The notes under the pieces are model-generated. The model made no database searches. It was given only the letters and a program-made list of their open reading frames with translations, and was not told where the DNA came from. This document shows, one piece after another, positions 9,704 to 55,566 of a stretch of 64,000 nt of DNA; position 1 is the stretch's first letter, and each line of letters begins with the position of its first letter. Source of the stretch: an uncultured Chloroflexia bacterium (GTDB lineage: Bacteria > Chloroflexota > Anaerolineae > CG2-30-64-16); the NCBI GenBank assembly GCA_963774265.1, contig CAVZDU010000003.1:256001-320000 (forward strand), read 5' to 3'. A program made the translations under genes and the position numbers.

Positions 9704-9709
9704 ATTTGC

Positions 9710-11006: not shown

Positions 11007-11105
11007 AAGAGTCCTTTTCGTGAACCGGCGATCGAAGTCGCCCTCTGACACGCCAAGGGGGCTGAGACGCACTCGAAGACGCAACCCGAACCCACTTCAG
11101 CGGGA

Positions 11106-14231: not shown

Positions 14232-15760
14232 TCATACCACGGGCAACCCAGCCGCCATCATCTCCTTCAAACGCGCGTACGCTTCGTCCCAGCCGCTTCG
14301 CGGCCCCGGCTCGAATGTCAGCACATCGAACGAATCAGCTACGACCTGGCGCGCCTCAGCGTAGGATCCCAGGAGCCCCAGGGCGACCGCCTGCACCAGG
14401 ATGTTGCCCGCAGCCGTGGCTTCGACCGGGCCGGTGACGACCGTGTGGCCGGTGGCGTCGGCCGTGAAGCGCGAGAGCAGCCGGCTTTGCGTGCCGCCGC
14501 CGACAATGTGGATCGGCTCCAGCCGGCGGCCCAGCATCTCCTCCAGCCGCTCCAGGACCAGCCGGTACTTGAGCGCAATCCCTTCGAGGATGCAGCGGAC
14601 CAGCGCCCCTTTCTCATCCGGCACGGGCTGGCCGGTGCGCCGGCAAAATGCCCGAATGCGCTCCGGCATGTCGCCCGGCTTGCAGAAATCGACGTCATCG
14701 ACGTCGATCACGCAGCAAGAACGGACTCGCGCCGGCGGCCATCTCGGTCCATTCGGCATAGGAACGCGCCTCTCCCTGGCCGGCCCACGTGCGCCGGCAC
14801 TCCTGCAGCAGCCACAGCCCGATGATGTTCTTGCAGAAACGGAAGCTGCCGCCTGCGCCTCCTTCGTTGGTGAAGTCGTAGGCCAGGCTCTGTGGGGTGA
14901 TCACCGGTTCAGGGAGCTCGGCGCCCATAACCGACCATGTGCCCGAGCTGATCCAGGCGAAATCCGACCCTCTCGCAGGCACCGCGGCCACGGCCGACCC
15001 GGTGTCGTGGCATGCCGGCGCGATCACGGGTATGGGGCCGGTCGCCTGTCTCCTCTGCCACGGAGGGCTGCAACGGACCGAGCACCGTTCCCGCGGGGAC
15101 GACCAGGGGGAAGATGTCGACGGGGATCTCCATGGCGTCCAGCAGCGGCCTGGCCCAAGCCTCGCGTCGCGGGTCGTAGCATTGCGTCGTGGTGGCGATG
15201 CTGAACTCGCAGACAGGCTGGCCGGTCAGCCAATAGGTGAACAGGTTCGGCATGGGAAGCAGTGTTGCAGCTGCCTCCAGTTCCGGCGCGCGGCTCAGGG
15301 CCATTGCCAATAGCTGGTAGAGCGAGTTGATCTGCAGGAACTGGATGCCGGTCTGCTCGAAGATTTGGGCCCGCGGCAGCCGCCGGAACGCCTCCGCCAG
15401 CATGCCATCGGTGCGGCCGTCCCGGTAGTGGTACGGGTTGCCGATCAGGCGGCCGTCCCGGTTCAGCAAGGCCGAAATCGACTCCCCAGGTGTCCACGCC
15501 GATGCCCGCCAGCGGCCCTTCCTGGCTGGCAGAGGCGATGCCCTGCTTGATCTCACCCCAGAGCCGCAGCACATCCCAGTGCAAGCTGACTGCGACCGTC
15601 CCTGCCCGGCACGGCGGACCGGGCCGTTGGGGAAGCGATGCACTTCCGACAGGCCGAGCCGCCCGTCCGTCGAACCGGCCGAGGATCGCGCGTCCACTCT
15701 CCGCGCCGAGATCAAGGGCCACGATGTTGGCCGTACGTCCCCGTGTCTCGTGTGAGAGCC
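14232..15760 (-). CDS. rhaB: Rhamnulokinase (FGGY family), multiple frameshifts
   Basis: [81 protein letters not shown]; start approximate. Confidence 0.88.
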
Positions 15761-15793
15761 TCTCCGCGTCTCCGCGTCATGCATCGCCGTCAC

Positions 15794-17084
15794 TCACGCC
15801 ATCAGCAAGTGCGGCTTCTCCACCAACTGCACCACTCGCTGCAGGAAGCGCGCGGCCGGGCCGCCGTCCACCAGGCGATGATCGAAGGTCAGGCTGAGCC
15901 AGACGCATCTGCCGCGGCTCGACGTGATCGCCGATCCAGACCGGCTGCGTCTTGATGCGCCCCACGCCCAGGATGGCGCACTCCGGCAGGTTGATGATCG
16001 GCGTGAACGCGTCGATGCCGAACATGCCCAGGTTGGTCAGCGTGAAGGTGCTGCCGGTCAGCTCATCGGGCGTGCATCGGCCGCTTCGGGCGCGCTCGGC
16101 CAGCGCGGCTGTCTCTGCGGCCAGCTGCGCCAGCCCCTTGCGGTCGACCTCTCGCACCACCGGCACCAGCAGCCCGCGTTCGGTGTCCACCGCCAGGCCG
16201 ATGTCGATCTGCGGCCAGATCTTGATCGCGTCATCGTCCAGCGACGCGTTGAGCGTGGGTGCTCGGCCAGCGCCTTGGCCAGGATGGTCAGGAAGAGGTC
16301 GTTGTACGATACGGCGACCCCGTCGGCGGCCAACTGCCGGCGCAGCCCCACCAGCGCGGTCGCGTCGACCTCGGCCGTCAGCGTCACCGGCGCGGTCTCG
16401 GCTGTGGCTCGCGGCCATGCGCTCGGCGATGAGCCCGCGGATACCCGTGAGCGGGATGCTCTAGCAGGCCGGACGCCGGACTGTCGGTCGCTGGCGCCGC
16501 CGAGCCCTCTGGCTCACCGCCCGTTCGACATCTTCCTTCGTAATCTGCCCGCGCGGTCCGCGAACCCGCCAGGGTGCGCCAGTCGAGCCCCGCATCTTCG
16601 GCCATGCGCCGTGCGACCGGTGTAGGGGAAACCCCTTGCGGCCGTCGGTCGCCTTCTGACGCCGGTGGCGGCGTAGGGGCGGTCCCTTGCAGTCGCCTTT
16701 CCCCCGTGTACGCCCCCACATCGCGCTCGACGATCGCGCCCTCTGGCCCGGTGGCCCTCACCTTGTCCAGCGGCACTCCTTCGCTCTCGGCCAGGCGTCG
16801 GGCGCGCGGCGAGACAAAGACGCGCTGGGGAAGGGCAGACGATGCAGGCTCTTCGATGGTCGCGATCGCGGTCAGCACCTTCACCTCGTCGCCCGCGCCA
16901 GCGCGTCACCCCAGCGCAGCACGCCGCTCGCGGGCGCTTCCACGTCCAGCGTCGCCTTGTCGGTCTCGACGGCGAACAGCGGCTCGCCCTGCTGCACTGC
17001 GTCACCTTCGCTCTTGTACCAACTCACCAGTGTGAGCGTATCAACCGTTTGCCCCAAGGGGGGAACCAGCACTTCGGTCGCCAC
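15794..17084 (-). CDS. Dihydrolipoamide acyltransferase (E2), copy 1, frameshifted
   Basis: Lipoyl domain VETDKATLDVEAPASG, two E3/E1-binding motifs (SPRARRLA, TPVARRMA), catalytic FTLTNLGMFG, TFDHRLVDG. Confidence 0.85.
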
Positions 17085-17116
17085 GGGGAGATTTCGCACT
17101 AGTCATGGGGCACCTC

Positions 17117-18132
17117 TCAAAACAACGCCTTGACCGCGGCGACCACCCGCTCGACGCTGGGCACGTAGAACTGCTCCATGACCGGCGCGAAGGGCGGCGG
17201 CACGTCGGGCGCGGAGACGCGCTTGATCGGCGCGTCCAGCCAGAAGAACGCCTCCTCGGCGACGATGGCCGCCAGCTCGCCGGCCCAGCCGCCGGTGAGG
17301 TTGTCCTCCTCGACGATCACCAGCCGGCCGGTCTTGCGCACCGACTCCAGGATCAGCTCCTTGTCGAGCGGCACCAGCGTGCGCGGGTCGATCACCTCGG
17401 CCTCGATGCCCTCCTTGGCCAGCTCCTCGGCCGCGGCCAGGGCCCGGTACATCGTCAGCAGCTTGCCGACGATGGTCACATCCTTGCCCTCCCGCCGGAT
17501 GATGCCCTTGCCGATGGGCACCAGGTAGTCCTCGTCCGGCACCTCGCCCACCGGGCTGAGCGCGCCCTTCTCGGTGCGCGGTCCCTTGCTGCCGTAGAGC
17601 AGCTTGTGCTCGAAGACGAGGACCGGGTTGTCGTCGCGCACGGCGCTCTTGAGCAGCCCCTTGGCGTCGTAGGCGGTGGCCGGCGCGACCACCTTCAAGC
17701 CCGGGGACGTGGCAGAAGAACGCCTCCAGGCTCTGCGCGTGCTGCGCGCCGCGGGCCGTGGCGCCCACCGGCGCGCGCATCACCATCGGCACCTTCGACC
17801 GTGCCGCCCGACATGTAGGTCATCTTGGCGGCCTTGTTGACGAGCTGGTCCATCGCCAGGAACAGGAAGTCGCCGTACTGCACGTCGGCGATGGGCCGCA
17901 GCCCGGCCATCGCCGCGCCGACCGCGACGCCGGCCAGCCCCAGCTCGGAGATCGGGGTGTCGAGGATGCGCTCGTGGCCGAACTCGTCCGAGAGGCCCAG
18001 GGTGACGGTGAACGCGCCGCCGAAGCCGCCGGGGATGCCGATGTCCTCGCCGATGCAGAAGACGCGCGGATCGCGCCGCATCTCTTCGCGGATGCCCTGG
18101 CGCATCGCCTCGGCAATGCTCATCTGGGTCAT
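17117..18132 (-). CDS. TPP-dependent dehydrogenase E1 beta subunit (acetoin/pyruvate dehydrogenase-like), copy 1
   Basis: [45 protein letters not shown]; frameshifted. Confidence 0.9.
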
Positions 18133-19154
18133 CGGACACCTCCGACGGCTGCCGCAGCGATCGGCACTGGGCCCTTCGCCGTAGAACACATCTTCCAGCG
18201 CCTCTTCCGGCGCCGGCGAGGGGCTGCTCTCGGCGAAGGCGACGGCGTCGTCGATGGCCTCGGCGACTTCCTTCTCGATCTGCGCCAGGGACTCATCGGT
18301 CGCGAGGCCGGCGGCCATCAGATGGGCCGCCATGCGCTGGATGCGGATCGCGGCCGGCCCACTCCTGCTTCCTCCTCCTTGGTCCGGTAGGTGCGCGGGT
18401 CGCTGCGCGAGTGGCCGCACAGCCGATAGGTCTTGCACTCGAGCAGGGTCGGCCCGCCGCCCGCGCGCGCCCGGTCGATGGCCCGGCCCGCCGCCTCGTA
18501 GCACGGCCAGCACATCCATGCCGTCCACGATCTCGCCGGGCATGCCGTAGCGCCGCAGCGCGGTCCGCGATATTCCGGATCTTGAACGTCACGCCGACCG
18601 GGGTCGAGGCGGCGTAGAGGTTGTTCTCGCAGACGAACAGCGCGGGCAGGTCCCAGATGGCGGCCATGTTGAGCGCCCTCGTGGAACGCGCCTTCGTTGG
18701 TCGCGCCGTCACCCAAGAAAGCAGACGGCCACGCTGCCCGTCGCCCAGCCGCTTGCACGCCAGCGCCAGCGCCCGTGGCCAGCGGAATGTTGCCGCCGAC
18801 GATCGCGATGGCGGGGATCATGCCGACGCTCATGTCGCCGACGTGCATCGAGCCGCCCTTGCCCTTGCAGCAGCCGGTGCGCTTGGCGAACAGCTCGGCC
18901 ATGATCGAGCGGAGGCTACGCCCTTGGCGATGGCGTGGCCGTGCGGCCGGTGCGTGCTGGTGACGTAGTCGCTGTCGCTCAGGTGCGCGCACACGCCCGA
19001 CCGCGACCGCCTCCTGGCCGATGTAGAGGTGCAGGGTGGAAGGAATCTTGCCCTGCATGAACAGGTAGTTGCAGCGCTCCTCGAACCGCCGGATGGTCAG
19101 CATCTGGCGGTACATGTTCAGTTGGAGGGCGCTTTCAGGCCGAGAATCCTGCAT
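18129..19154 (-). CDS. TPP-dependent dehydrogenase E1 alpha subunit, copy 1
   Basis: HLYIGQEA, STHRPHG, KGKGGSMH, GDGATNEG...CENN, TYRLCGHSRSDP; frameshifted. Confidence 0.9.
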
Positions 19155-19179
19155 GTGATACAGCCTCCCGATGCTATGT

Positions 19180-20081
19180 CTATGCCTTGTCCGGCGCTGC
19201 CGAAAAGGCGCATCATCTCTTCGACCACGACTTGCATTGCCACGCGACCCGCGGCAGCACGTCGGTGGCGAAGCCGGAGCCAATGACATCGTACGGGTTG
19301 TAGGCATCGCCTGCGGCGACCGCGGCGCTGCCGCAGCGCCTCGAAGTACGCTCGCTTGATGACGCTGCCCACGTTGATCTTGCGGATGCCGAGACGGGCA
19401 GCCTCGGCCAGATCGGCGCGATGCACCGATGTCGCACCGTGCAGCACCAGCGGCACCGGCACCGCCGCTTTCAGCGCCGCGAGGCGGGCCAGATCGAGCC
19501 GGACCTGACCGCGGCCGTGCAGGTGCACCTGGCCGATGTTGACGGCTAACGCGTCGATGCCCGTGCGCTCCACGAAGGTCCGCGCCGCGTGCGGGTCGGT
19601 GAGGTGGCGGTCATCCGGCACGGCAGACAGGTCACCACTGATGCCCGGCAGCGAGACCATCTCCGCCTCGACCGCGACCCCAGCGGGATGGGCCCGTGCC
19701 ACCGCCTGGCATACGGCGTCCGTCTGCTCCGCCAGGCTCATCGCTTCGTCGCTGAACATCGTCATGTTGAAACCCAGCTTGATGGACTCGAACACCCAAT
19801 CGAGGTGCGGCGACTCGTTGAACAGGAAGCAGCAGGGCACCGACAGATCGCGACAGACCGCGAGCCCCATCGCCGCATACGGCGCGAGGCGGTCGCGTAC
19901 GATACGTTCGGGGTGCGGGATGTAGATGCCGCTGAAGCCCAGGATCACCGGTGAGCGCGTCGCCTCGGCTGCGTCGGCCACGGCCAGCAGACTTTCCAGG
20001 TTCCAGCTTTCGAAGTAGCCGACGGCATAGCCCTTGCGTTCGGCGTCGGCCATCAGAGTCGTGAAAGGAAACGAGTGACAT
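19180..20081 (-). CDS. Class II fructose/tagatose-bisphosphate aldolase family protein
   Basis: GYAVGYFESWNLESL, GFNMTMF, VAVEAE, LTDP, TGIDALAVNIG, PLVLHG, GIRKINVG; frameshifted at both ends. Confidence 0.8.
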
Positions 20082-20162
20082 GAGTTCCTTTCGCGATGGG
20101 AACGTGATGCGTGAGCGGATGGGTCACGCGACGCATGTGTCGTTTTCGCGGCCTCACGGCAA

Positions 20163-21118
20163 TCAGGTCGGGGCCAACGGGTCGCCGGAGTGTAAACTGA
20201 CGCCCCGACACCATGGGCCGCCGTCTGTGCGTGGCCGTCCGCGGGTCGCACAGAGTTCAGCCGCAAGGCGCCCTGCCCGGTCGCCACGGTGCACGTGCTC
20301 CGGCCGATGGCGAGCACGGTGCCGGGCGCTGTGGTGGGCGCCGCCGCCGCCAGTTCGGCGGCCAGGACGTAGACGCGCTGCCCGACTGTATCGAAGTAGC
20401 ACTGGCCCGGCGACGTGCTGATCCATCGGCGCAGCTGCACGGCCGGACGAGACCAGTCGAGCCGAAAGTCCGCCTCGGTCACGGACGAAAAGTAGGAAAC
20501 ACCTGCGCTCTCCCTGGGGTGTCGGGCGCAGCCGCCCCGCCTCGGCGTCCGCGATCAGCCGGCCAACCAGCGGCACGCTGCGGACCATGACCCGGTCGTA
20601 CAGGCTCGCCACCGAGTCGTCGCGGCGGGTGCGGACGCGCACCTGGTAGAGGATGTCACCGGTGTCCAGGCCGTTGGCTCATCACGTGGACGGTCAGTCC
20701 GGCCCAGGCGTTCGTCGTGGCGAAGCGCCCAGAAGAGCGGATGCTTGCCCCGGTAGGCCGGCAGCAGCGACGCGTGGAAGTTGGCCGCCAGCAGACGCGG
20801 GACCTTCAGACTCTCCTCCTTCAGCAGGTTGAGGTAGCCGACGGCCAGGAATAGGTCGGGTCGGAGGCCAGCCAGCGTTCGGATGAACTCAGGTCGGTTC
20901 GGGTCGAGCAGGCTCGAACGCGGGGATCCCGTGCTCGCGCGCGTATTCGACGAAATGCGGCGCGCCCGCTTGCGTTCGTGTGTTGGTCGAGGTGCGGCGT
21001 GCAGGCGGCACGTCGACCACCGCGACCGTGATCGCAGGCCACCTCCTGCAGCGCCGCGAAGTGCACGGTTGCTGAAGACGCTGTCCGAGCTCCCGAAGAA
21101 GACCGCTCGCACCGTCAT
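20163..21118 (-). CDS. Formyltransferase-family protein (Fmt/ArnA-N-like), frameshifted
   Basis: MTVRAVFFGS, LRPDLFLAVGY, NFHASLLPAYRGKHP, LTVH...LDTGDILYQ and an Fmt C-terminal-like segment (LDWSRPA...PGTV...VATGQG). Confidence 0.75.
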
Positions 21119-21980
21119 CTCACCCGCGACTCCTCCCCTCGGGGAAGTGGCTCGACCTTGAACGCTGCTGCGCGCTCCTGCAGCGGCACCTCGATCGCCA
21201 TCCGCTCGATGCTGGAGCCGAGCTGCACGCCGTGACAGCCGGTGTGGTCGAGCATGTACTGCCCGTCCTCCGGGTTCACCAGCGCGGCGCCGTGGGCCAG
21301 CAGGATCGCGTCGGGCTTGATCTTCAACGCGATGTCGTAGTTGGCCTGCGTGCGCGCGGCCATGTCCTCCAGCGAGCTGCTGGCGGCGTAGCCGGTCGAG
21401 CCACCGCGCGTGATGCCGGCGTGGAAGATGAAGATGTCGGGCGGCAGCCTCTTCATCAGCCGCTCCGTGTCCTCCTCGATTGAACGCGTAGCCGATGGTC
21501 AGCAGGTCCAGCTCGCGGGCGATGTTCAGCATGTCGATTTCGTGCTGGTAGCCCAGGCCGGTGCCTTCCAGCGTCCTGCGGAATTCGCCGTCGAACCAGG
21601 CCACGGTCGGGAAGTTGTGTACGCCCGAGAAGCCGACGTGCCGGATGTCTTCCAGAAACAGCCGCATGTCGCGCAGGACGTCCACGCCGTTCAGGCCGGC
21701 GACCACCGGGCGTCTCCTTGACCTGGGGCAGCACCTCGCGCTTGCCCATCTGGTAGACCATCTCGTTGGCGTCGGCCATCGGCAGCATGCCGGCCAGCGA
21801 CCCGTAGCCCTGCATGCGGAAGTAGCCGGTGTTGTAGACACCCAGGATGTCCACGCCGCCGCGTTCGATGAACTTCGCGGCGATGCCGTTGCCCGCCCCG
21901 GTCATGACGAGGGGCTTGCCACGCTTGATTTCTGCCCACAGCCGGTCGAGGAATTCCTGACGGGTGTATCGCTTTGCCAT
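21115..21980 (-). CDS. Phosphoenolpyruvate hydrolase-like TIM-barrel protein (Tm-1 C-domain family)
   Basis: GAGNGIAAKF, YNTGYFRMQGYGSLAGMLPMADAN, GFSGVHNFPTV, LEGTGLGYQHE, HAGITRGG, GSSIER; frameshifted. Confidence 0.8.
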
Positions 21981-21991
21981 GGCGGCGCTCC

Positions 21992-23218
21992 CTATTCCTT
22001 TGCCTGCGCGTGGATCAGGTCGATCAGCATGTTGGCGGCCTCGATCGCAAACGCCGGATCCTCGATGTGCGTGTCGCGCTCCACGATCCGGATGTTCTTG
22101 GGCAGGCCGGCCTTCAGCTCGGCGACGAACGCCGCGTCGGCCTCGGGATCGTAGAAACCCATGCCCTTCGACGGCATAGGAGTCGTAGCCGGCGGTGGGG
22201 ATCATGAAGACGGCGTCCTGCTCGGTGTACTGCAGACGTCGTGCAACCTCCTTGCCCACCTCGGCCATCTCTTCCCGGTTCAGCCGCACGTCGGTGATCT
22301 TCGGGCTGTGGCGGATCAGGGTGCGGGTGTTGAACGGCGGCGGGACGGTCTCGGGCTCGTTGAAGACCAACACCTCGATCGCACCGGGACAGATCACCTG
22401 GGGCAGGCCCAGCTTCCCGGCCGTCGTCAGCCGCTCCGGGCCGCCGGCGAGCAGCGCGTGGTGCATCTCGTTGGAGACCTCGATGGTCGAGTAGTCCAGC
22501 ACCGCGCCGATGATCCCTTCCTTCATCATCTGCTCCATCGCCCGGCCACCGGGGCCGATGGCGTGGAAGACGATCGTCTCGAAGCCGGCTTCCTCCAGCA
22601 CCCTGATGGCCCTCATCGCGCCCTGGGTGGTGATGCCCACCGTGGTGACCGCCACCAGCGGCTTGTCCTCGCGTTCGAGCCGGACGTCCACCTGGGCCAT
22701 GCCGCAGACCGCGCCGGCCGCGTTGGCCAGGATCTTCCGCGTGACCGGGTTCAGGCCCATGATGTCGGTCACCGAGAACATCATGGTGATGTCCTTGATG
22801 TCGACCCAGGGCGCCACGTTGCCGGAGGCCATGGTGGACACCATCACCTTGGGAAAACCGTAGGGCAGGGCGCGCATGACCGCGGTGCTGAGCGTCGTGC
22901 CCTGCGTGCCGCCCACTGAGACGATGCCATGCACCTTACCCTCGGCTGCCAGCTTGGTCACGATCGCGGCCGCGCCGTCGGCCATCACCGGCGCGGCCAC
23001 CTCGCGGTCCGGGTGCTCCAGGATCTTCGCCAGCGACATGCCCCCGGCCTCGGCGACCTCCTCGCGGGTGATGTCGGCCGGGGTGGTGGCGCGCCGACCA
23101 CGCCGGTGTCTACGAGCAGGGCCGCGTCTCCGAACCTGGCGATCTGCTCGCGCAAATAGGCAGCTTCGACGCCTTTGGTGTCGAGGGTTGCCAGAACGAC
23201 GATGGTCTTGCCACTCAT
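21992..23218 (-). CDS. UPF0261 / Tm-1-like ATP-binding domain protein
   Basis: LATLDTKGVE, GGTQGT, ALPYGFPKVMVSTMASG, SVTDIMGLN, VFHAIGPGGRAME, AGGPERL, HIEDPAFA. Confidence 0.85.
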
Positions 23219-23312
23219 AGTGAACGCCTCCTTCAAGAGGTCAAGCGTCAGCGGTCAGGGATCAGCGTCCCGGTTCCCGGTATCTGCGCTCCTTGCTTTT
23301 CCGTCGACTCGC

Positions 23313-24665
23313 TCAAATCCCCTTGTCCGCAAACTTCGGATGGAACTGCTCGCCGGAGAAGCCCCAGCGCGTCACCGGCCGCTTGCGCAGGCCCCAGGTC
23401 TTCAGCGCGGCCATCAGTTCGGGCTTGTCCTGCGCGGCGACGTCCAGCGGGATGCCGGCCATGGCCGCGTCGATCGCCTGGCGGAACGCCATCGCGCCGG
23501 CGGTGTAGCCCATCGGATGGCCCAGCATGCCGCCGCCCGCCATGAAGATCATGTCCGGGCCGTTCTCTTCCAGCATCGGCGGCACCGCGCCGGGGTAGAT
23601 GCCCGCGCCCGGCATGGGGAAGATCGGCTTGATGTGGTAGAACGGCGCGTGCAGCGTCTGCGAGGTGCGCAGACACTCCTCCGGTGGATGCCACCGGGAT
23701 GCTCGACCAGATGCTCGGCGTGAGCATCATGTCCGCGCCGCACAGGCGGCAGATCTTGGCCAGCACCGGGAAGTTCATCGTCGGCAGCAGCGCCAGCAGG
23801 TGCGACACGTGCAGCAGGATCGGCGCAGTGATCTTCGGGTCCTCGGCCAGCACGCGCAGGATGGACGGCCCGGCCGAGTAGGCCAGCAGCAGGCCGGTCG
23901 CGCCCATCTCGCACGCCTTGCGCGCCTTCTCCTGGATGCGATCCACCTCGTCGGTGATGCTGACCATGTAGAGCGTCTTGTGGCCGGTCTCTCGCTCGGC
24001 CTTCTTGCAGCGCCTTCAGCACCGCCTCCAGCCGCGCCTCGAAGGGGCAGTTGGCCAGCTCGGTGCACATCTCGTCGTCCTTGCACAGGTCGGCGCCGCC
24101 CAGCGCGCTCTGGTAGACCTGGTTGGCGGTCTCCTCGGGCGTCATGCCCATCTTCGGCTTGATGATCTGCAGCGTCAGCGGCCGGTCGGGGACGCCCAGG
24201 ATCTTGCCGCACGCCGGGGATGCCGAACTTCGGCCCCTCGAACTTCTTCGCCAGCTTCTCGGGGATGTAGATGTCCAGCAGCCGCATCTTGGTCGGGAAG
24301 GCGAAGCAGTTGCCGGCGATCGAGAGCAGCAGCATCGGCACGTTGACGTTGACATCCCACGCCGCGGTGGGGAAGCCGAGCTGGATGATCGCCTTCTTGG
24401 TGCCCTTGGGCGCGGGGATCTCGTAGTAGCCGAGCACCTTGCTCATCAGCCGCTCGCGCACCTCCGGCGTCAGCTCCTTGACGTCCATCCAGCTCGAGGT
24501 CGAGCCTTCGGCCGCCAGCCGCTCCACCTGGCCCAGGTGATCGATGAAGTCCTGGTCTTCCAGCGTGTCCTCGATGTAGTAGGTGCCGACGATGAAGTCA
24601 TCGCTGGGGATGCAGCTTTCCCACATGTAGTTGAACATGTGCGGGTCGTAGAGATGTTTGGACAT
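23313..24665 (-). CDS. RuBisCO-like protein (form IV RLP), frameshifted
   Basis: [81 protein letters not shown]; frame breaks near 24210, 24005 and 23680. Confidence 0.92.
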
Positions 24666-24735
24666 TGTGTCTCCTAGGGATTCCGTTGGTATTCGTACCC
24701 ATCTGATTGCAAACGCCGACCTGATACGCTGACTC

Positions 24736-25723
24736 CTACCCCAGCAACGCCTCGCGCAGCATCGCACTCGCGTCCATCGCGTCGCCGCCCGCGATCACCT
24801 GGGCGATGCGGTCGCGGCCGATCTTGTCGAGCAGGCCGTGCAGCCCCTGGATCCAGTTGATGCTTTCGGTGGCGGCGCGGATGCCGTTCTCGCGGTAGGG
24901 GAAGATGTCGAGCGCATACCAGCCGGTGTAGTTCAGCCGGTCCAGCCAGTAGAGCAGCTCCAGCATCTCGATGGTGTGCACCGAGCCGACGGTCATGTCG
25001 TCGTCCCACAGCCGCCAGTTGTCGTTGAAGTGCATGTAGAACAGCTTGTTGCCGAAGTAGTGCAGCAGCGCGGCCGACTCGGCGACGTTCTCGTAGGCCA
25101 TCAGCGCTGTGGCCGATGTCGATCATCGCGCCGACGTTGGGCTGGTTGACCTTCTCGATCAGCAACAAGCGTCTTGCCGACGGTCGCGATGAAGCAGTGG
25201 GTGCGCGGCTCCTTCGGCTTGTACTCCAGCACCAGCTTGACGTCGGGCACGTGCTCGGCGCACTCGATCGTGCCCTCGATGATGCGATCCCAGGCGGCCT
25301 GGTAGTCGGCCTGGAACGGGTAGTCGTAGCCGTCCTGCCCGAACCAGAGATCCACCACCTCGCAGTCGAGCTGCCTGGCCCATTCCATCGATTTCTTGAC
25401 TTCCTGGATCGCCGTCGCGGCGGATCTTGCGGATCGTTGGCTGCGAAGGAGCCCCAGCCCCACTTGCCCGACGCCCAGATGTCGGGCGTGACGCAGGTCA
25501 CCTCGAAGCCGGCGTCCGCCACCTGGCGGCGGATCTGCTCGACGTTGCCGTCGTTGACGTGCCACATGCCGACCACTTCCACGCCGGTGAGACCGGGCAC
25601 CTGGGTCGCGGCCGCGATGAGTTGGTCGGTCGTCAGCCGCTCGCCGTAGCCGGAAAGCACGTAGCGGTCGGCGCAGGCGTTGAAGGTGTTGATGTTGGCG
25701 GAGAAACGGAGTGGTTCGGACAT
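24736..25723 (-). CDS. Xylose-isomerase-like TIM-barrel sugar isomerase (D-apiose isomerase-like family)
   Basis: DRYVLSGYG, WFGQDGYDYPFQ, EYKPKEPR, IDIGH, NDNWRLWDDDM, LDIFPYREN; frameshifted. Confidence 0.82.
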
Positions 25724-25772
25724 GGAGCCTCCTGACGGATTGAAGATTGAAGATTGCAGGTTGCAGACGGTG

Positions 25773-26851
25773 TCAAATTAGCAGCCCATACGGCTCCTCG
25801 ATCAGATCGACCACGCGGTCCAGGAACTGCGCGGCCAGCGCGGCATCAAACACGCGGGGGTCGCATGATAGCGTGAGAAAGGCCGTGTGCCGCACCGTCA
25901 GGCGACCATCCACCGCGGCCGGCCGCTCTGCGATTCGTCCGATCGCGAGGACGGCAGATTGGGACGGGTTGAGGACGGCCTGGAAGCTGTCGATCCGGAA
26001 TGTGCCCAGGTCCACGAGGGCTAAGGTTACAGGTTGCGGACTGCAGGTCGTGAGCGTTTCCTGCCGTGCCTTCTCGACCAGCGCCGCCCGCTCGGACGCG
26101 ATCTGCGACAACGGCTTGCGGTCGGCATCCCGGAGGACCAGCGCGACCGGCCCTGTATCTGTGATGGTCGCGATCCCGATGTCGACCTGCGCACGCAGCC
26201 CGACGCGGCCGTCCTCCCAAAGCGCATTAGCGCGCGGATCTGGGCCAGCGCCGCGCCGCAGATGCGAACCAGCAAGTCCGTGACGGTGAGTTGGACGCCC
26301 GCGCGCTTCTCGACGACCGGCGCCAGTCTTGTGTGCAGCTTCAGTAACGCCTCCGCGACGACCTCGACGCTAACGAAGATTGAAGATTGAAGATTGAAGA
26401 TCGCGCCCCCGAAGCCCGTAGAGGCAACCATTGGGGCTGCCCCTGATTCTTGCGCTGCTGCAGCCAGCACGTCCCGCTCGATCACGCGGCCGCGTGGCCC
26501 GCTGCCCACCAGCGCTCGCCAATCCATCTCAAGCCCCCGCGCGCGCCAGCGCGCCCGTGGGGACGAGAATATCTTCCTTCTTCCTTCTTCCTTCTTCCTT
26601 TCGCCCTCTTCCTCCGCCGCATAGAGCCGCGCCAGAAGCGCACCCACCCGCGCCTTCTCGCCCGCATGCACCTCCAGCGTGCCCAGCACCCCGGATGCCT
26701 GCGCCTCCACTTCGACGGTCACTTTGTCGGTTTCAACCTCAAGGAGGGGTTGTCCTTGTACGACGAGTTCCCCCTCGGCCGCGAGCCAACGGACCACGGT
26801 TCCTTCTTCCATCGTGAGGCCCAGCCTGGGCATTGAGATGTCAGTCGGCAT
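25773..26851 (-). CDS. Dihydrolipoamide acyltransferase (E2), copy 2, degenerate-looking catalytic domain
   Basis: [32 protein letters not shown]; C-terminal [11 protein letters not shown] replaces the canonical DHR. Confidence 0.75.
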
Positions 26852-26861
26852 CGCTGCTCCA

Positions 26862-27849
26862 TCACCGATCCCGGTAAAGCGCAGCTTTGGCCGCCATGAT
26901 GATTTTCTCGACGTTGGGAAGCGCAGCCAACTCCAGGCGCCCGTTGTACGGCAGCGGCACGTCCTCGGCTGCCACCTGCATGATCGGCGCGTCGAGCCAG
27001 TCGAACGCCTCCCGCTGCACCCGGGCCGCCACTTCCGCGGTGAAGCCGCCGGTCAAGGCGCCCTCGTTGACCACCACCAGCCGTCCGGTCTTCTCCACCG
27101 ATCGGACGATGGCAGGCAGGTCCAGCGGCTTGAGCGTGCGCGGGTCGATCACCTCGGCGTCGATCCCCTCTGCCGCCAGCTTCTCGGCCGCTTCGAGCGC
27201 GAAGAGCACCATGCGGGAGGTGGCGACGATCGTCACGTCCTTGCCCGGCCGTTTGACGTCGGCCACGCCGATCGGGATCAGGTACTCGCTCTGCATCCGG
27301 CACCGGCCCGGTCGTGTTGTAGAGCAGCTTGTGCTCGATGAAGATCACCGGATTGTCGCTGCGAATGGCGGACTTGAGCAGCCCCTTGGCATCGTAGGGG
27401 GTGGACGGCTGGATCACGACCAGGCCGGGGATGTGGACGAACCACATCTCCAGGCTCTGTGAGTGCTGCGCGGCGTTGCCGCGGCCGCCGCCGCCCTGCG
27501 TGCGCATCACCAGCGGCACGCTCGCCTTGCCGCCGAACATATAGCGCGCCTTGGCCGCCTGGTTGACGATCTGATCCATCGCCAGCGCGCTGAAGTCGAT
27601 GTACATGATCTCGACCACCGGCCGCAGGCCGGTCATCGCCGCGCCCACCGCGATGCCGGTGAAGCCGGCTTCGGAGATGGGCGTGTCGCGCACCCGCTTC
27701 TGCCCCGAACCGTTCGTAGAGGCCGCGGGTCACCTGCAGCACGCCGCCATAGCGGCCCACATCCTCACCCAGGACGCATACTGCCGGGTCGCGGGCCATT
27801 TCCTCGTGCAGGGCTTCGTTGAGCGCATCACGGTAAGGATTTCACGCAT
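26862..27849 (-). CDS. TPP-dependent dehydrogenase E1 beta subunit, copy 2
   Basis: [56 protein letters not shown]; frameshifted. Confidence 0.9.
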
Positions 27850-27872
27850 GGTGGTTCCTCGCACGCTTAGTG

Positions 27873-28878
27873 CTATAGCATGGCCGATGGATGCAGCTCG
27901 CTATTCGTTGAATCTTCGCATACACATCTTCCCAAGGCCGATCTCCGGCTCGGGACTCGCCTTGCCGAAGGCGATGGCGTCGTCGATGTCGGCGCGGGCC
28001 TGCAGGCGCAGCGCTTCCAGATCCGCCTCGGCGAAGCCGAACTCGCGCGATCAGCCGTCGCCCGAACCGGCTGATCGGGTCGCGCTCGGCTGATTTCCAC
28101 AGCGCGGTCTCTTCCTTCGGCACGGTAGCGAGAGCGGATCGCCGACCGTGTGGCCCTCGATCCGGTACGTCTGCGCGACCAGGAAGGTCGGGACCGCCGC
28201 CGGTGCGGGCCTGTGCGACAGCCTGGCGCGTCGCTTCGTAGACCGCCAGCACGTCGTTGCCGTCCACGGTCACTGCGGGCATGCCGAACGCCTGCGCCTT
28301 CAGCTCCAGCCGCTCGACCGCGATGAACGGCCGGCTCGGGCTGAACTCGGCGTACTGGTTCTCCTCGCACAGGTAGATGATCGGCAGCTTCCAGAGGGCC
28401 GGCCATGTTGCCGGCTTCCATCAGGATCCCCTGGTTGCTGGCGCCGTCGCCGAAGAAGCAGACGCCACCTGGCCGGAGCCGCGCAGGTCGGCCGAGTAGG
28501 CCGCGCCGGTGGCGAGGGCGATCCCGCCGCCGACGATGCCGTTGGCGCCGAGGATCCCCAGGTCGAAGTCGGCGATGTGCATCGAGCCGCCCTTGCCCTT
28601 GCAGTAGCCGGTGGCCCGCCCCAGCAACTCGGCCATCATCCGCCGCGGGTCGCCGCCCTTGGCCAGGCAATGGCCGTGGCCGCGGTGCGTGCTGGTGATG
28701 TAGTCATCCCGGTTGAGCGCCGCGCACGCGCCGACCGCCACCGCTTCCTGCCCGGTGTAGGTGTGCGTGGTGCCGCGCAGCATGTTCGCCATGAACAGCG
28801 CCCGCGCGCCTTCATCAAAGTAGCGGATCAGCCACATGCGGTGGTACATGTCGGAGAGTTGGTCGCGACAAGATCCAT
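27873..28878 (-). CDS. TPP-dependent dehydrogenase E1 alpha subunit, copy 2
   Basis: HTYTGQEA, STHRGHGH, KGKGGSMHIAD, GANGIVGG, FFGDGASNQG, TYRIEGH; frameshifted. Confidence 0.9.
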
Positions 28879-28947
28879 GAGGTCTCCGGAAAGTGGCGGA
28901 GCTGAGTGCGGATGCGTAGTCGGCGGCATGCACCTACGTCCGCAGTA

Positions 28948-29687
28948 CTATCTCAAGTACAAGCCCACCGTTCACGTCCAGCGTCGCGCCGGTGATGAAG
29001 GCTGCGTCGTCGCTGGCCAGGAAGCAGACGGCGGCGGCGATCTCGTCCGGCTCGCCGAAGCGGCCCAGCGGGATCTGCGCCCTGCACCCGGGCCTGCATC
29101 TCGTCCGACCACGCGGCGGTCAGGTCGGTCGAGGTCGTCGCCGGCGACACGCAGTTGACGGTCACCCCGTCCGGCGCCAGCAGCTTTCGCCAGCGTCTTG
29201 GTCAGGCCGATCAGCCCGGCTTTGGACGCGGCGTAGTGCGCGCCCACCAGCAGGCCGCCCATCTGCCCGCCCACTGAGGCGATGTTGACGATCCGCCCGC
29301 GTCGGCCGGCCTGCCGCAGGTGGGGCAGCGCTCGCCTGGCAGCACAGGAACGCGCCCTTGAGGTTCACCGCCAGCACGCGATCCCACTCGGCCTCGCTGA
29401 TCTCGGCGAAGGCTGAGAGCGGGCAGATGCCGGCGTTGTTGACCAGGATGTCGAGCCCGCCGAAGGCCGCGACGGTCGCCTCGACCGCGCGGCGCACCTC
29501 GTCCGGCCGGCTCACATCGGCCCGAAGCGCGATGGAGCTGACAGGTCTATCAATGCCTGCCAGGGTCTGTGACGTCCAGCAGCGCGACTTCTGCCCCACG
29601 CTCGGCCAATGCGATCGCGATCGCCAGCCCGATCCCGCGCGCCGCGCCGGTGACGAGGGCGGTGCGACCGTCCAGATCATTCATCAT
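28948..29687 (-). CDS. Short-chain dehydrogenase/reductase
   Basis: [40 protein letters not shown]; frameshifted. Confidence 0.88.
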
Positions 29688-29699
29688 GTCACCCTCGCG

Positions 29700-30690
29700 T
29701 CCCCGTATCACCGCTGTCACGCTTCGTCAGCACCCGCTTCACCGCTGCGACGATATCCGCACGGCCATGCCGTACATCGGGAACAGCTCGGCCGGGTCAC
29801 CCGAGCGGCAGAACGTGTCGGGGATGCCGACGCGCGCCATGGGCACGAGGGTGTGCTCGACCAGGTACTCGGCCACCGCGCCGCCCAGCCCGCCGATGAT
29901 ACTGTGATCCTCGACGGTGACGATCGCGCCGGTCTCCTCGGCCGCGGCCTGGACCGCGTCGCCGTCCAGCGGCTTGACCGTGTGCATGTCGAGCACGCGC
30001 GTCTGGATGCCGTCGCGCGCCAGCTCGTCCGCCGCGTCCAGCGCCAGCGACACCATCACGCCCATCGCGATGATCGTCACGTCGCCACCTTCACGCACCG
30101 TGAACGCCTGGCCCAGGGTGAACTGCTGGGCCGGGTCGTAGATCACCGGCACCGGGTTGCGGCCCATGCGGAAGTAGGCCGGCCCGTCGAGCGCGACGAT
30201 CTGCCGGAGCAGCGCCGGAACCGCGATCGCGTCCGCGGGAACGACCACCGTCATGTTCGGCATCGCGCGCATGATCGCCACGTCCTCGGTGCCCTGGTGC
30301 GTCGGGACCGTCCCAGCCCACCTCCAGCCCACCGTGCGAGCAGATCACCTTGACGTTCAACCGGCCATAGCAGATGAAGCTGCGAATCTGCTCGCAGCCG
30401 CGCAGGGTCGCAAAGGTCGCATAGGTGCAGGCCAGCGGGATCAACCCCGCCGTCGCCAGCCCGGCCGCGCCGAGCAGCATGTCCTGCTCGGCCACGCCGT
30501 AGTTGATGTGACGGTCGGGGATATGCCTGCCGGAATGCACCGGTCTTCAGCGAGCTCGAGATGTCGGCGTCCAGCACGACCAGGTTGGGGATCTCGTTCG
30601 CCCAGGTCGACCAGCTCGGCGCCGAAAGCGTCGCGCAGCGTCCGTCTCGGGCGCGGCGAGCCGGAAAACTGGCGACCAGGGCGGTGCGAG
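29700..30690 (-). CDS. Transketolase C-terminal (pyrimidine-binding) subunit
   Basis: VVLDAD, YGVAEQDM, GWDGPTHQGTED, PNMTVVVPAD, GPAYFRMGR, VTVEDHSIIGGLG; boundaries approximate. Confidence 0.88.
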
Positions 30691-30699
30691 CAAGTTCAA

Positions 30700-31543
30700 G
30701 CGATTTCTCCCCTGGCTCCTCCCCCAACTCGGCCAGTGCAGCGATGGCCTGCTCGCGGTTCGGCGCCTTGCCGTGCCACTCGTGGCGGTCCAGCATGAAC
30801 GACACACCCTTGCCCTTGGTCGTGTGGCAATGATCGCCGCGGGAGTATCGGTCACACCCCTGGCCCAATCCAGCGCGTCGAGGATCTGGCTGATGTCGTG
30901 GCCGTCGATCTCCAGCACGCTCCACCGACACGCCCGCAGTTTGTCGGGCAGGGGGTCGAGCGAGAGGATGTCGTCCGACTTGCCGTCCACCTGCGAGCGG
31001 TTGTAGTCGACCAGGGCACACAGGTTGCTCAGCTTGTGGTGCCCGGCCAGCAGAAGCGCCTCCCAGGTCGCGCCCTCCTGCAAATCCCCTTCACCGAGCA
31101 TGACATACGTGCGGTAGGCCCGGCCGGTAATGAGCGGCTCCCATCGCCATGCCGGCTCCCGCAGCCAGTCCGCTGCCCAACGGTCCTGCGGTCATGTCCA
31201 CACCGGGGGTTTTGCGCATGTCGGGATGGCCCTGCAGGTGGCTGTGCGCCTGCCGCAGCCCCCACAGGTCGTCCACGGGGAAATAACCGCGCTCGGCCAA
31301 CGCCGCGTACCAGATGGGGCACGCGTGGCCCTTTGACATGATGAAGCGGTCGCGGTCGGGCCAGTCCGGTCGCGCCGGGTCGACCCGCAGCTCGCGGAAG
31401 TAAAGCGCCGCCATCATGTCAGCTGCGGACAGCGAGCCGCCCGGATGTCCCGAGCCGGCGTAGTATGTCATCTTGATGACATGGCGGCGGAGGCGGGCTG
31501 CGATGGCACCTAGTTCTTCGGGGAGCGTCTGGTCGGGAGGCAT
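30700..31543 (-). CDS. Transketolase N-terminal (TPP-binding) subunit
   Basis: SGHPGGSLS, RDRFIMSKGHA, LQGHP, GEGDLQEG...DYN, IDGHD, TKGKGVSFM...WH. Confidence 0.9.
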
Positions 31544-31550
31544 GGCGTCC

Positions 31551-31922
31551 CTATTTCCGCCCCGGATCATAAGCGCCCGGCGTGACCGGCGGCGAGAAGA
31601 GCGTGACCAGCTTCAACGGCGCCGCTGCATCGACGCGAATCTGGTGGGGCAGTCCTGGTGGGATGAACACGGCCACACCCGGCTCGAGGGGAGTTTCCTG
31701 CTCGTCCTCGATGATGCCGCCCGTGCCCTCCAGGATGTAGATGATCTCCTCCTCGGCCGCGTGTACGTGGGCCGCGGCCAGGGTGCCGGCGGGGAACTCC
31801 GCCAGGCCAAAGGCCAGGTTACGGGCTGGGCTGTTCAGCGGGCCTAGCAGATAGTACCAGTCCCGGCCCGGCAGATGGTAGATGGGGCAGCTGTGGGCGT
31901 TAGCAGTCTGAAGGTGCGGCAT
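31551..31922 (-). CDS. Cupin domain protein
   Basis: AHVHAAEEEIIYILEGTG ... IPPGLPHQI cupin motifs. Confidence 0.88.
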   Translation of the reverse strand: MPHLQTANAHSCPIYHLPGRDWYYLLGPLNSPARNLAFGLAEFPAGTLAAAHVHAAEEEIIYILEGTGGIIEDEQETPLEPGVAVFIPPGLPHQIRVDAAAPLKLVTLFSPPVTPGAYDPGRK

Positions 31923-31944
31923 CTTTCTCTCCCGTTCTACGCGA

Positions 31945-32716
31945 TCAACCTATCGGGGTGCTGCCGGAGCAAGGCCGGATCGTGCGGTGGAACCAGGATG
32001 CCGTCGATTTTGGCGATACGCTCCATGGCCTGGTGGCACTGGATCGAGGTTCACCGCCAGTCCGATCGGATGCCGTTTCTTGAGGTTCTCCGTGTAGAAG
32101 ATCGTATCGCCGGGAAAGACCGCGACCCCTCGCTTCGTCTGCACCGTGAACGCCTGGCTGCACAACGTGTGTCCGCCGATGTAGAACGCACCGATTCCGG
32201 GCAGTATCTCGGGCGCTTCATCGTCCGCCAGGATCAGTCGATCGCGCGCCTCGCTCGCGAAATAGGCCAGCACGTCGTGTGGGAAGAGCGGGTGAGGGCA
32301 CAAGCCCTCCACAGGTGGGTCGAGTGTCAGGTGGAAACCGGTCCGAGAGACGATGAATTGTGCATTGGGAAATAGCTTGGCGTTGGACACGTGGTCGTAG
32401 TGCAGGTGAGTGAGCAGCACCGCTGCGACGTCCTCCGGGCTGATGCCCTCTTGCCGCAGGAGCAGCGGGATATTCTGCGTCGCCATGTCCATGCGGAATT
32501 GCCCCGCTCGCCCACGCCTGCCATTACCATCGGCTGAATCTCGTCCACGTCGCGCACGCCGGGGTCCACGAGCATCACTTGGCCGTCGTCTCGGCGCAAT
32601 ACGAAAAAGAGAAAGTCAGCGGTCAGCCATTCGTCCCAGCGTGCCATGTAGAACATCTGCGGACCGGGCACTGATTGCTCGCAGAACTTGATCGCTTTGA
32701 TGGAATAGGTCGCCAT
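31945..32716 (-). CDS. Metallo-beta-lactamase-fold hydrolase (AHL-lactonase-like)
   Basis: LVDPG, LLTHLHYDH, GGHTLCSQ, FPGD motifs; frameshifted. Confidence 0.82.
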
Positions 32717-32755
32717 TGGCTCACGCCCCTTTTCAACCACGCTGCGCTTGTGGTC

Positions 32756-33514
32756 TCACTGCAGGTTGACCGACGTCCCCCCGTCCACCACGAGCGTCGC
32801 GCCCGTGCACCATGCAGAGTCGTCGGTGGCAAAGAAGAGGACAGGGCCGGCGATGTCCTCGGGCTGGCCCAGCCGGCCCAGCGGGGCGCGCTTTGACCAG
32901 TAGTCGCGCATCGCCGGATCGGCCAGTGCATCGCGGTTGATGTCGGTCTCGACGGTGCCGGGCAGCACCGCGTTGACGGTGATGCCGTGCGGTCCCAGCG
33001 AGATCGCCATGGATTTGACCAGCAGGTTGATGCCCGCTTTGGATGCGCAGTAGTGCGCCTGCTGGCTGCCGCCGAACTCGGCCGAGATCGAGCTGATCGC
33101 AATGATGCGGCCCCGAATGCCCCGCTCGACCATGATCCGGCTGACCGCCTGCGAGACCAGAAAGTAGCCCTTGAGATTCGTATCCAGCACCTGGTCCCAC
33201 AGCGCCTCGGGCATCTCCAGGAAGCCGGCGAACGGACAGATGCCCGCATCGTTGACCAGGATGTCGATCGTGCTCCAGTGCTCCAGGACGTCCGCCACCA
33301 TGGCCTGCACCTGGCTGCCGTCGGATACATCGGTTCGTACGAAGATCGCCTGGCCGCCCCCCGCCTCAATCAGGCGGACAGTCTCGCGGGCCTCCGCCTC
33401 GCGCTGATCGACGACGGCCACCCGCGCGCCTTCCTGCCCGAACCGCAGTGCGATGGCTCGTCCGATCCCTCGCGCCGCGCCGGTGACGATGGCGACTTTG
33501 CCGCTGAGCCGCAT
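32756..33514 (-). CDS. SDR, L-rhamnose 1-dehydrogenase (LRA1)-like
   Basis: [53 protein letters not shown] and C-terminal VDGG..VNLQ, recalled as typical of LRA1. Confidence 0.75.
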   Translation of the reverse strand: MRLSGKVAIVTGAARGIGRAIALRFGQEGARVAVVDQREAEARETVRLIEAGGGQAIFVRTDVSDGSQVQAMVADVLEHWSTIDILVNDAGICPFAGFLEMPEALWDQVLDTNLKGYFLVSQAVSRIMVERGIRGRIIAISSISAEFGGSQQAHYCASKAGINLLVKSMAISLGPHGITVNAVLPGTVETDINRDALADPAMRDYWSKRAPLGRLGQPEDIAGPVLFFATDDSAWCTGATLVVDGGTSVNLQ

Positions 33515-42253: not shown

Positions 42254-42311
42254 TGGGCCCGATCCTTGAGTCGCCGAAGGGTTGATGGTTGCCGGTAGTT
42301 ACAGTGTCGCC

Positions 42312-42383: not shown

Positions 42384-42414
42384 GATGAAGATTTAGCGGA
42401 ATCGGGCGTATGCC

Positions 42415-55560: not shown

Positions 55561-55566
55561 CGCACG

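Follow-up and report, generated by a model that had tools for sequence, protein, structure and literature searches.

Organization of the gene run at positions 15794-33514

We analyzed a 64,000-nt stretch of DNA from an uncultured Chloroflexia bacterium (the whole stretch is called "the window" here). At positions 15794-33514 it carries a run of catabolic genes that includes one for a form IV RuBisCO-like protein (RLP). An original prediction, made from the sequence, had read this run as a single sugar-catabolic module nested inside a rhamnose locus. Pfam searches of open reading frames (ORFs) and of minus-strand, stop-to-stop pieces recovered all 18 of the gene families then listed, in the order stated. 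The genes of the run all lie on the minus strand, co-oriented, and the gaps between them are short (35 to 102 nt), so the proposed gene list and order stood. The nesting was borne out as well by NCBIfam models, which identified the RhaS-type binding protein, two permeases, and ATPase of an ABC importer upstream of the run and an FGGY kinase, rhaA, and class II aldolase-family genes downstream. The window rhaA scored 587 bits on NF002203, above the cut-off of 572, which identifies it as the isomerase of the phosphorylated L-rhamnose pathway. As judged from its conservation in other genomes, the run is a composite of two or three separate gene cassettes. The genes are given below in the order of transcription, together with the kinase that follows the run; sets A and B are the two sets of E1 and E2 dehydrogenase components.

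32759..33514 (-): SDR 1, a short-chain dehydrogenase/reductase (SDR) resembling L-rhamnose 1-dehydrogenase (Lra1); first gene of cassette 1; 252 aa, uninterrupted; adh_short_C2, 244 bits
31940..32716 (-): metallo-beta-lactamase (MBL)-fold hydrolase, lactonase-like; Lactamase_B; two frame changes, with tblastn pieces in frames -1/-3/-1
31554..31922 (-): Cupin_2 protein, uninterrupted; Cupin_2, 59 bits; a single tblastn piece, 85% identical to the protein of relative G002
29760..31573 (-): transketolase, probably a single gene of full length; neighboring pieces match Transketolase_N, Transket_pyr, and Transketolase_C; at least two frame changes
28955..29687 (-): SDR 2, like FabG and butanediol dehydrogenase; adh_short on three pieces; at least one frame change
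27940-28867 (-): E1 alpha of set A; E1_dh
26865-27835 (-): E1 beta of set A; Transket_pyr/Transketolase_C
25776-26851 (-): E2 of set A; Biotin_lipoyl, E3_binding, and 2-oxoacid_dh; DPR where the catalytic DHR is expected
24739..25723 (-): xylose-isomerase-like TIM-barrel enzyme, first gene of cassette 2 in the window; four private single-base insertions
23316..24665 (-): form IV RLP; RuBisCO_large_N and RuBisCO_large; three private single-base insertions of G
19121..23254 (-): accessory insert as a whole (Pfam and NCBIfam), comprising the next four genes
about 21995-23254 (-): UPF0261 protein, N- and C-terminal domains (Pfam)
21142-21980 (-): PEP-hydrolase-like TIM barrel (Pfam PEP_hydrolase)
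about 20066-21140 (-): formyltransferase-like protein, formyl transferase N- and C-terminal domains (Pfam)
19187-20065 (-): class II ketose-bisphosphate aldolase, probably uninterrupted
18169-19142 (-): E1 alpha of set B (Pfam), the set conserved beside the RLP
17120-18132 (-): E1 beta of set B (Pfam); two private insertions
15797-17102 (-): E2 of set B (Pfam)
14253..15793 (-): FGGY kinase, rhamnulokinase-like, closing cassette 2; three pieces that match FGGY_N and FGGY_C; at least three frame changes

A conserved RLP cassette within a composite run

Are the genes of the run conserved together? We compared the window with seven close relatives at the DNA and protein levels. In six of the seven, the RLP gene directly adjoins the E1 alpha, E1 beta, and E2 genes of set B, and the insert (19130-23310) is absent between RLP and E1 alpha in these seven closest relatives. 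Relative G001 has isomerase, RLP, E1(B), and E2(B), followed by MBL, cupin, transketolase, SDR, and E1(A), in that order; in G002 the RLP is on a different contig from the isomerase, whose neighbors are rhaA and the set A E2.

A search with an intact RLP as the query against one genome per species, which reaches only fairly close relatives, yielded 71 loci. By their record labels, nearly all are metagenome-assembled genomes of Chloroflexota/Anaerolineae, with a few from Spirochaetota, Rhodospirillales, Victivallales, Gemmatimonadota, and Deltaproteobacteria. The conserved unit was defined by unbiased clustering of neighbors and by tblastn tallies over the 63 loci with an RLP at least 60% identical, with flanks of at most 10 kb. 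For the cassette 2 genes, the denominators are the loci with enough flank. In the tallies below, gene calling at the loci was heuristic, the relatives are kin rather than independent samples, and the 10-kb flank underestimates the adjacency of cassettes 1 and 2.

GntR/UTRA regulator near the RLP: 39/45 loci
Isomerase near the RLP: 48/54 loci
E1 alpha near the RLP: 47/56 loci
E1 beta near the RLP: 43/51 loci
E2 near the RLP: 26/44 loci
FGGY kinase near the RLP, after E2: 23/39 loci
Aldolase within 10 kb of the RLP: 4/63 loci
Transketolase within 10 kb of the RLP: 2/63 loci
MBL within 10 kb of the RLP: 2/63 loci
Cupin within 10 kb of the RLP: 2/63 loci
Lra1-like SDR within 10 kb of the RLP: 2/63 loci
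PEP-hydrolase-like protein within 10 kb of the RLP: 2/63 loci
Formyltransferase within 10 kb of the RLP: 2/63 loci
UPF0261 within 10 kb of the RLP: 0/63 loci

The usual order of the conserved unit, which we call cassette 2, is GntR, isomerase, RLP, E1 alpha, E1 beta, E2, kinase. Because this order ends in a kinase, the window "rhaB" at 14253-15793 is the last gene of cassette 2; the limits first drawn for the run enclose all the genes listed for it but leave this kinase outside. The idea that the 17.7-kb run is one co-conserved module had to be given up, as only the TIM-barrel isomerase, RLP, E1 alpha, E1 beta, E2, and FGGY kinase (with GntR) are conserved. Co-conservation in other genomes, on which that idea depended, fails for the whole run and holds for the core cassette, and the cassettes tend to be neighbors. 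The UPF0261/TIM-barrel/formyltransferase/aldolase block is a rare optional insert; a three-gene form without UPF0261 occurs at loci L058 and L026, and an aldolase-only form occurs at L027 and L028.

Cassette 1 forms a unit of its own, less common than cassette 2 and often found next to it. A transketolase-centered search of 301 genomes of the class found a match of E 1e-100 or better in 12, and the neighborhoods of five transketolase orthologues (at least 59% identity) were compared. In G291, G221, and G196, E1 beta(B), E2(B), and the kinase are followed by an Lra1-like SDR, transketolase, and SDR 2. In G123, the whole of cassette 1 is present along with an ABC transporter of its own, and the 18 kb examined include no RLP; G225 has only a split transketolase. 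Cassettes 1 and 2 are adjacent in the window, G001, G002 (in part), G291, G221, G196, L032, and L039.

Two other neighbors recur at the RLP cassette. A DUF6259 protein of about 750 aa lies beside it in five loci (L016, L018, L025, L044, and L080), and a DeoC-type aldolase with an SDR is inserted at it in five others.

Frame changes in the run

Of the 18 genes, only SDR 1, the cupin, and probably the aldolase are uninterrupted. About 15 are broken by frame changes, of which tblastn with intact orthologues as queries located at least 22. Are these breaks errors of the draft assembly or signs of gene decay? We followed the reading frame with a seven-state hidden Markov model (HMM) of codon usage, trained on 594 long ORFs of the source genome, and called a junction frameshift-like when the upstream frame was still open more than 30 nt beyond the switch. 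Within 15794-33514 there are 47 same-strand frame switches, 34 of them frameshift-like. The source assembly (G000; 10 contigs totaling 5.5 Mb, with a marker-gene completeness of only 84%) has 1932 frameshift-like junctions, or 0.35 per kb, at a density that climbs with G+C (Spearman 0.36).

We checked private indels in three gene alignments (RLP, isomerase, and E1 beta of set B), each with its eight closest relatives. All nine indels private to the window are 1-base insertions (seven G, one T, and one A). The 24 rows of relatives carry 0 to 4 private indels each, and 17 of them carry none. Genome-wide, 1444 junctions are +1 and 488 are -1 (75% +1), and the module has nearly the same ratio (25 versus 9; 74% +1). 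No +1 bias is seen (845 versus 1034) at junctions near a stop, most of which are true gene ends. The damage extends to genes outside the run: rpoC (G000 C7:4204-8551) is read in two abutting frames, the final 138 profile positions of rpoB (G000 C7:822-4053) fall in another ORF, and two lipoamide dehydrogenase genes are split (C1:693896-695294 and C3:80362-81652). The RLP pieces are still 93 to 96% identical to intact orthologues of 448 to 449 aa, and the six substitutions private to the window RLP are distributed 1/1/4 over codon positions 1/2/3. Because the verified indels are all single-base insertions, the same +1 bias is found genome-wide, and rpoC and rpoB are also hit, the frame changes are most likely draft-assembly errors rather than gene decay.

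Several features of the locus pull the other way. Junction density in the module is 1.92 per kb, 5.5 times the genome mean, and the two 10-kb bins of the module rank third and fourth of 545. The adjoining 3.1-kb RhaS ORF has no frameshift-like junctions, and G+C explains the local excess only in part. These are the grounds for regarding the run as a decaying pseudogene cluster in this lineage, with real frame changes. We consider this unlikely: none of the nine verified indels is longer than one base, the +1 bias of the module is that of the whole genome and is absent at true gene ends, RNA polymerase genes are affected as well, and the protein pieces remain very close to their orthologues.

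Other measurements were less informative. Among the sequencing runs listed, none contained more than 0.11 of the sampled words, and no RNA run that contains them was among these. Longest-ORF coverage per bin did not set the module apart from the rest, a measure made uninformative by frameshifted genes that form chimeric long ORFs. The motif CAAGA follows the inserted G at three of the nine insertion sites. We dropped it as an insertion-site motif, since GCAAGA lies within 25 nt of 63/1932 junctions versus 338/11433 random places and is no denser in the module.

Two further observations concern sequence quality. A second FGGY-kinase-like region, beside a DeoR regulator at window 42300-45000, has seven frame switches in 2.7 kb, six of them frameshift-like. 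In trees of 46 to 61 orthologues, the window RLP, isomerase, and E1 beta of set B (23316-25723 and 17120-18132) sit on terminal branches of 0.015 to 0.028, compared to medians of 0.084 to 0.098, yet their nearest sequences are merely 89 to 92% identical. The window copies are oddly consensus-like, and one possible cause is that reads of related populations were mixed into the consensus. This locus is a poor template, and intact orthologues (e.g., L016, L058, and L015) are preferable for experiments. Arguments from gene content in this assembly, such as those about "split" genes, must allow for insertion errors.

A form IV RLP distinct from MtnW and apiose RLPs

The window RLP pieces match PF02788 and PF00016, the N-terminal and C-terminal domains of the RuBisCO large subunit, and intact orthologues align over 380 to 413 residues with RuBisCO and RLP structures. 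The closest solved structures are the MtnW enolases 2ZVI (E 1e-63) and 2OEK (2e-63). The scores of intact orthologues were below every curated cut-off:

MtnW, NF007095 (PRK09549; best NCBIfam match): 278 bits, cut-off 409
MtnW, TIGR03332: 234 bits, cut-off 514
Type III RuBisCO model: 238 bits, cut-off 497
Apiose OiaX, NF042437: 152 bits, cut-off 700

Residues were read from alignments to MtnW and to RuBisCO 8DHT, and motifs were counted in 59 full-length orthologues. KPKxG is kept in 58/59, KDDE (presumably the metal/carbamate motif) in 59/59, the phosphate-binding GGGxLGHP in 55/59, and the RuBisCO-type Asn of GNxF in 48/59. The loop-6 motif GK[LM][ES]G occurs in 0/59 and HRxxH in 1/59, and the loop-6 stretch is deleted relative to 8DHT; we take the loop-6 Lys and the His-Arg of the second phosphate site to be specific to carboxylases. 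At the position of MtnW Lys98 (Geobacillus kaustophilus numbering), which we take to be the catalytic residue of MtnW, the RLP has Asn (AGN versus FGK). These residue patterns identify the protein as a form IV RLP that differs from MtnW and from apiose RLPs and has one phosphate site and a predicted intact enolization core. No mtnK/A/B/X/D-type family was found among the annotated neighbor clusters 1 to 21 of the RLP loci. The expectation that the RLP groups with neither MtnW nor a characterized apiose RLP was thus confirmed, both by its scores and by its lack of methionine-salvage neighbors.

Could cassette 2 instead salvage 5-deoxyribose or 5-methylthioribose from by-products of S-adenosylmethionine (SAM) enzymes, in the role of MtnW or of the Rhodospirillum rubrum RLP, and not act on dietary 6-deoxyhexoses? 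The structural and NCBIfam matches to MtnW favor this explanation. The shortfall at both MtnW cut-offs, the Asn at the Lys98 position, the absence of mtn-type families from the conserved neighbor clusters, and a rhamnulokinase-like FGGY kinase all disagree with it, and we regard it as improbable.

The source assembly has one more RLP-like gene, a distant one, at another place (G000 C7:383870-384859); its product is 34% identical to the cassette RLP over residues 64 to 397.

Partner enzymes of cassette 2

Intact kinase orthologues scored 461 to 462 bits on the rhamnulokinase model TIGR02627, just under its cut-off of 528, and 115 to 137 bits on fuculokinase. Rhamnulokinase is their best match among the NCBIfam families. 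Intact orthologues of the isomerase (326 to 328 aa) carry PF01261. They are similar over their full length to the structural-genomics "xylose isomerase" 3KTC (E 2e-59) and more distantly to class I xylose isomerases and L-rhamnose isomerase. E1 alpha is closest to human pyruvate dehydrogenase (PDH) E1-alpha (E 8e-66) and scores 379 bits against a PDH equivalog cut-off of 394; E1 beta exceeds the PDH E1-beta subfamily cut-off (376 to 424 bits, cut-off 321). Among orthologues of the set B E2, 24/25 have the lipoyl motif ETDK[ASV] and 21/25 have DHRxxDG, and by these motifs the set B E2 looks functional.

The E1/E2 sets might then be ordinary pyruvate or acetoin dehydrogenases that happen to lie beside sugar genes, with SDR 2 and set A forming a butanediol/acetoin operon. 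The E1 matches fit this explanation, as does the match of SDR 2 to butanediol dehydrogenase (193 bits, cut-off 270). It sits poorly with the fixed order of RLP, E1 alpha, and E1 beta, with an E1 alpha score under the PDH equivalog cut-off, with an operon that has no E3, and with a set A E2 that lacks the catalytic histidine. We think it has a small chance of being correct.

Genes of cassette 1 and the accessory insert

The G002 orthologue of SDR 1 scored 305 bits on NF053807 (RhamDHLra1), whose cut-off is 400, and the G002 orthologue of the MBL protein weakly matched N-acyl-homoserine lactone (AHL)-lactonase families. We considered the non-phosphorylative L-rhamnose pathway (LRA1-LRA4) for these genes and rejected it: SDR 1 is under the Lra1 cut-off, the lactonase candidate is of the MBL fold, and no dehydratase family was found in the run.

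The transketolase had been described as split. In G002, which has its closest intact orthologue, the enzyme is one protein of 643 aa with an end-to-end match to NF004559 (598 bits, cut-off 488); split forms occur in two more distant genomes, G225 and G123. The window transketolase is therefore probably one gene whose "split" is a frameshift artifact, and the apiose-like argument drawn from a split transketolase would then lose its base.

The set A E2 has an intact lipoyl motif (ETDKV), with DPRVFDA in the window and DSRVFDA in G002 where DHRxxDG is expected. The altered motif was recorded for window 25776-26369 (-) and L015 3464-4558 (-); the G123 homologue keeps DHR. Judged by these residues, the set A E2 resembles a lipoyl-bearing subunit that would be dead as an acyltransferase.

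In the accessory insert, the UPF0261 gene has both PF06792 and PF23189 and scores 373 bits on NF002674 (cut-off 335). A report on MarK of Novosphingobium describes it as an ATP-dependent kinase with the UPF0261 domain that phosphorylates aromatic ketones, the first catalytic activity reported for this domain (PMC12624787). By analogy, it is a fair guess that the window UPF0261 protein is a kinase. Like MarK, it has both UPF0261 domains; unlike MarK, which acts on aromatic ketones, it is paired with a PEP-hydrolase-like TIM barrel in a sugar locus.

Substrate and a possible reaction scheme

What sugar does the locus degrade? Beside the RLP cassette, about 9 of the 71 loci have rhaA, RhaS, L-fucose isomerase (FucI), or an aldolase-family homologue (at least 46% identical to the class II aldolase-family ORF at window 8933-10846), and the window copy of the cassette lies between RhaS and rhaA. 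We see about an even chance that this is a composite locus for catabolism of 6-deoxyhexoses of the rhamnose/fucose type, with cassette 2 as its core and with frame changes that are assembly errors. Some observations weigh against a dedicated 6-deoxyhexose route. Most RLP loci have no rhamnose or fucose gene inside 10 kb. The window also has rhaA and three class II aldolase-family domains, so that a second rhamnose route is not obviously needed. The run contains no E3 gene, and E3 candidates, frameshifted, lie elsewhere in G000. The set A E2 has no catalytic histidine in either the window or G002, and the scheme of carbonyl migration and cleavage set out below is an analogy.

The original prediction had favored a branched-chain or modified 6-deoxy sugar (apiose-like, aceric acid, or streptose-like). 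We see no support for a branched-chain sugar: the kinase is rhamnulokinase-like, and the recurring neighbors (rhaA, RhaS, and L-fucose isomerase) are genes for unbranched 6-deoxyhexoses. The full proposal assigns the entire run to a single pathway that would degrade such a branched-chain or modified sugar, with an isomerase, FGGY kinase, and split transketolase as in D-apiose catabolism. The locus does have genes for isomerase, FGGY kinase, transketolase, and RLP, and the two cassettes adjoin in the window and the seven other places named above. We nevertheless consider this pathway very unlikely, given the score of the RLP on OiaX, the best family of the kinase, the unsplit form of the closest intact transketolase and its rarity near the RLP, and the identity of the recurring sugar genes.

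If the substrate is a 6-deoxyhexose, what might the RLP do? We infer the substrate and every chemical step of the following scheme, which we propose tentatively, as one possibility, by analogy with characterized enzymes. The isomerase and kinase would make a 6-deoxy-ketose 1-phosphate, in which enolization by the RLP would displace the carbonyl toward the methyl end, as the R. rubrum RLP does on 5-methylthioribulose 1-phosphate. The dedicated E1/E2, using thiamine pyrophosphate (TPP) and lipoyl cofactors, would then cleave the alpha-hydroxyketone oxidatively, like acetoin dehydrogenase, to give an acyl-CoA and a sugar phosphate, bypassing lactaldehyde. A carbonyl at C5 would yield acetyl-CoA and a tetrose 4-phosphate; one at C4 would yield lactoyl-CoA and a triose phosphate. 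Cassette 1 might serve as a parallel oxidative branch or process the products of cassette 2, and the insert would contribute UPF0261, a probable kinase, together with TIM-barrel, formyltransferase-like, and ketose-bisphosphate aldolase proteins. The RLP cassette would thus encode a new oxidative, thioester-conserving split of 6-deoxyhexoses.

Such a route would avoid toxic lactaldehyde and allow ATP to be made by substrate-level phosphorylation in fermenting Anaerolineae. Cassette 1, as a parallel or follow-up branch, would again take an acetyl unit off a methyl hydroxyketone; its E2 would carry the lipoyl group without being catalytically active, and its transketolase would feed what remains back into the pentose phosphate pathway. 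For rhamnose and fucose, both major deoxy sugars of plants and algae in wetlands and sediments, the locus suggests a new fate as well.

To our knowledge, most form IV RLPs have no known reaction. Dozens of uncultured Chloroflexota have an RLP fixed beside a thiamine/lipoyl dehydrogenase, an isomerase, and a kinase like rhamnulokinase, and this RLP is a testable candidate for a new reaction. In searches of an open-access library and of bioRxiv, no paper turned up that connects an RLP to an E1/E2 complex, rhamnulose, or fuculose, which agrees with the first impression that this gene combination matches no described pathway. One article states that the range of RLP functions is still unknown (PMC7325909).

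Other features of the window

Three tandem class II aldolase-family domains lie at window 8933-11096 (-). They best match 3-oxo-tetronate-4-phosphate decarboxylase, ribulose-5-phosphate 4-epimerase, and bifunctional aldolase/SDR models (N-terminal part), and they are partly fused into a single ORF, probably through a frame change near 10517. The rhamnose-type binding protein at 33601-36729 (-) is one 1043-aa lipoprotein ORF with three in-frame tandem copies of the whole binding domain (period, 993 nt; DNA identity between units, 96.6 to 98.7%). This may be a real triple receptor or a tandem repeat over-expanded in the assembly; two adjoining RhaS-like matches are likewise found in G001 and L082. 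At 55477-56808 (+) lies a transposase gene of the IS110 family (276 bits against a cut-off of 140), and at 51997-54835 (-) an AcsV-like gene for corrinoid activation is apparently split over two overlapping ORFs. At gathering thresholds, no Rfam family, and hence no TPP riboswitch, matched anywhere in the window.

Comparison with known systems

Canonical and RhaEW-type L-rhamnose operons share with the locus the elements that flank the run, namely, the RhaS-type ABC importer, rhaA, the FGGY kinase, and class II aldolase-family genes. The RLP, E1/E2, transketolase, and UPF0261 genes are not known to belong to these operons, and "RuBisCO-like" does not occur in the text of Rodionova et al. 2013 on rhamnose operons (PMC3870299). 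The run also recalls the D-apiose pathways in that an RLP, or an isomerase with an FGGY kinase and a transketolase, serves the catabolism of an unusual sugar. Carter et al. (2018) reportedly described D-apiose catabolism with RLPs (OiaX/OiaT) or with an isomerase, a kinase, and a split transketolase. The window differs in its rhamnulokinase-like kinase, in a transketolase that is probably unsplit and rarely near the RLP, and in its low OiaX score.

The E1/E2 sets have the same domains as acetoin and pyruvate dehydrogenases, and set B keeps the lipoyl lysine and DHRxxDG, which makes these enzymes a model for cleavage of a methyl alpha-hydroxyketone. Here, in contrast, the sets are fixed beside an RLP, an isomerase, and a sugar kinase, with no E3 and with DPR or DSR in the set A E2. 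MtnW, the 2,3-diketo-5-methylthiopentyl-1-phosphate enolase, provides the closest structures and shares KDDE and the phosphate-binding GGGxxGHP with the cassette RLP. It has Lys and K-G-V where the cassette RLP has the RuBisCO-type Asn and KPK, and the latter has no methionine-salvage neighbors and falls below both NCBIfam cut-offs.

The R. rubrum RLP (IV-DeepYkr) is the 5-methylthio-D-ribulose-1-phosphate isomerase of the 5'-methylthioadenosine (MTA)-isoprenoid shunt. It too is a form IV RLP whose substrate is a ketose 1-phosphate, terminally deoxy or substituted, that comes from a kinase step; by role, it is our model for the proposed carbonyl migration. Its context is MtnK, MtnA, and a cupin, whereas the cassette RLP is accompanied by a rhamnulokinase-like FGGY kinase and E1/E2, and the product of the latter RLP would be cleaved to an acyl-CoA.

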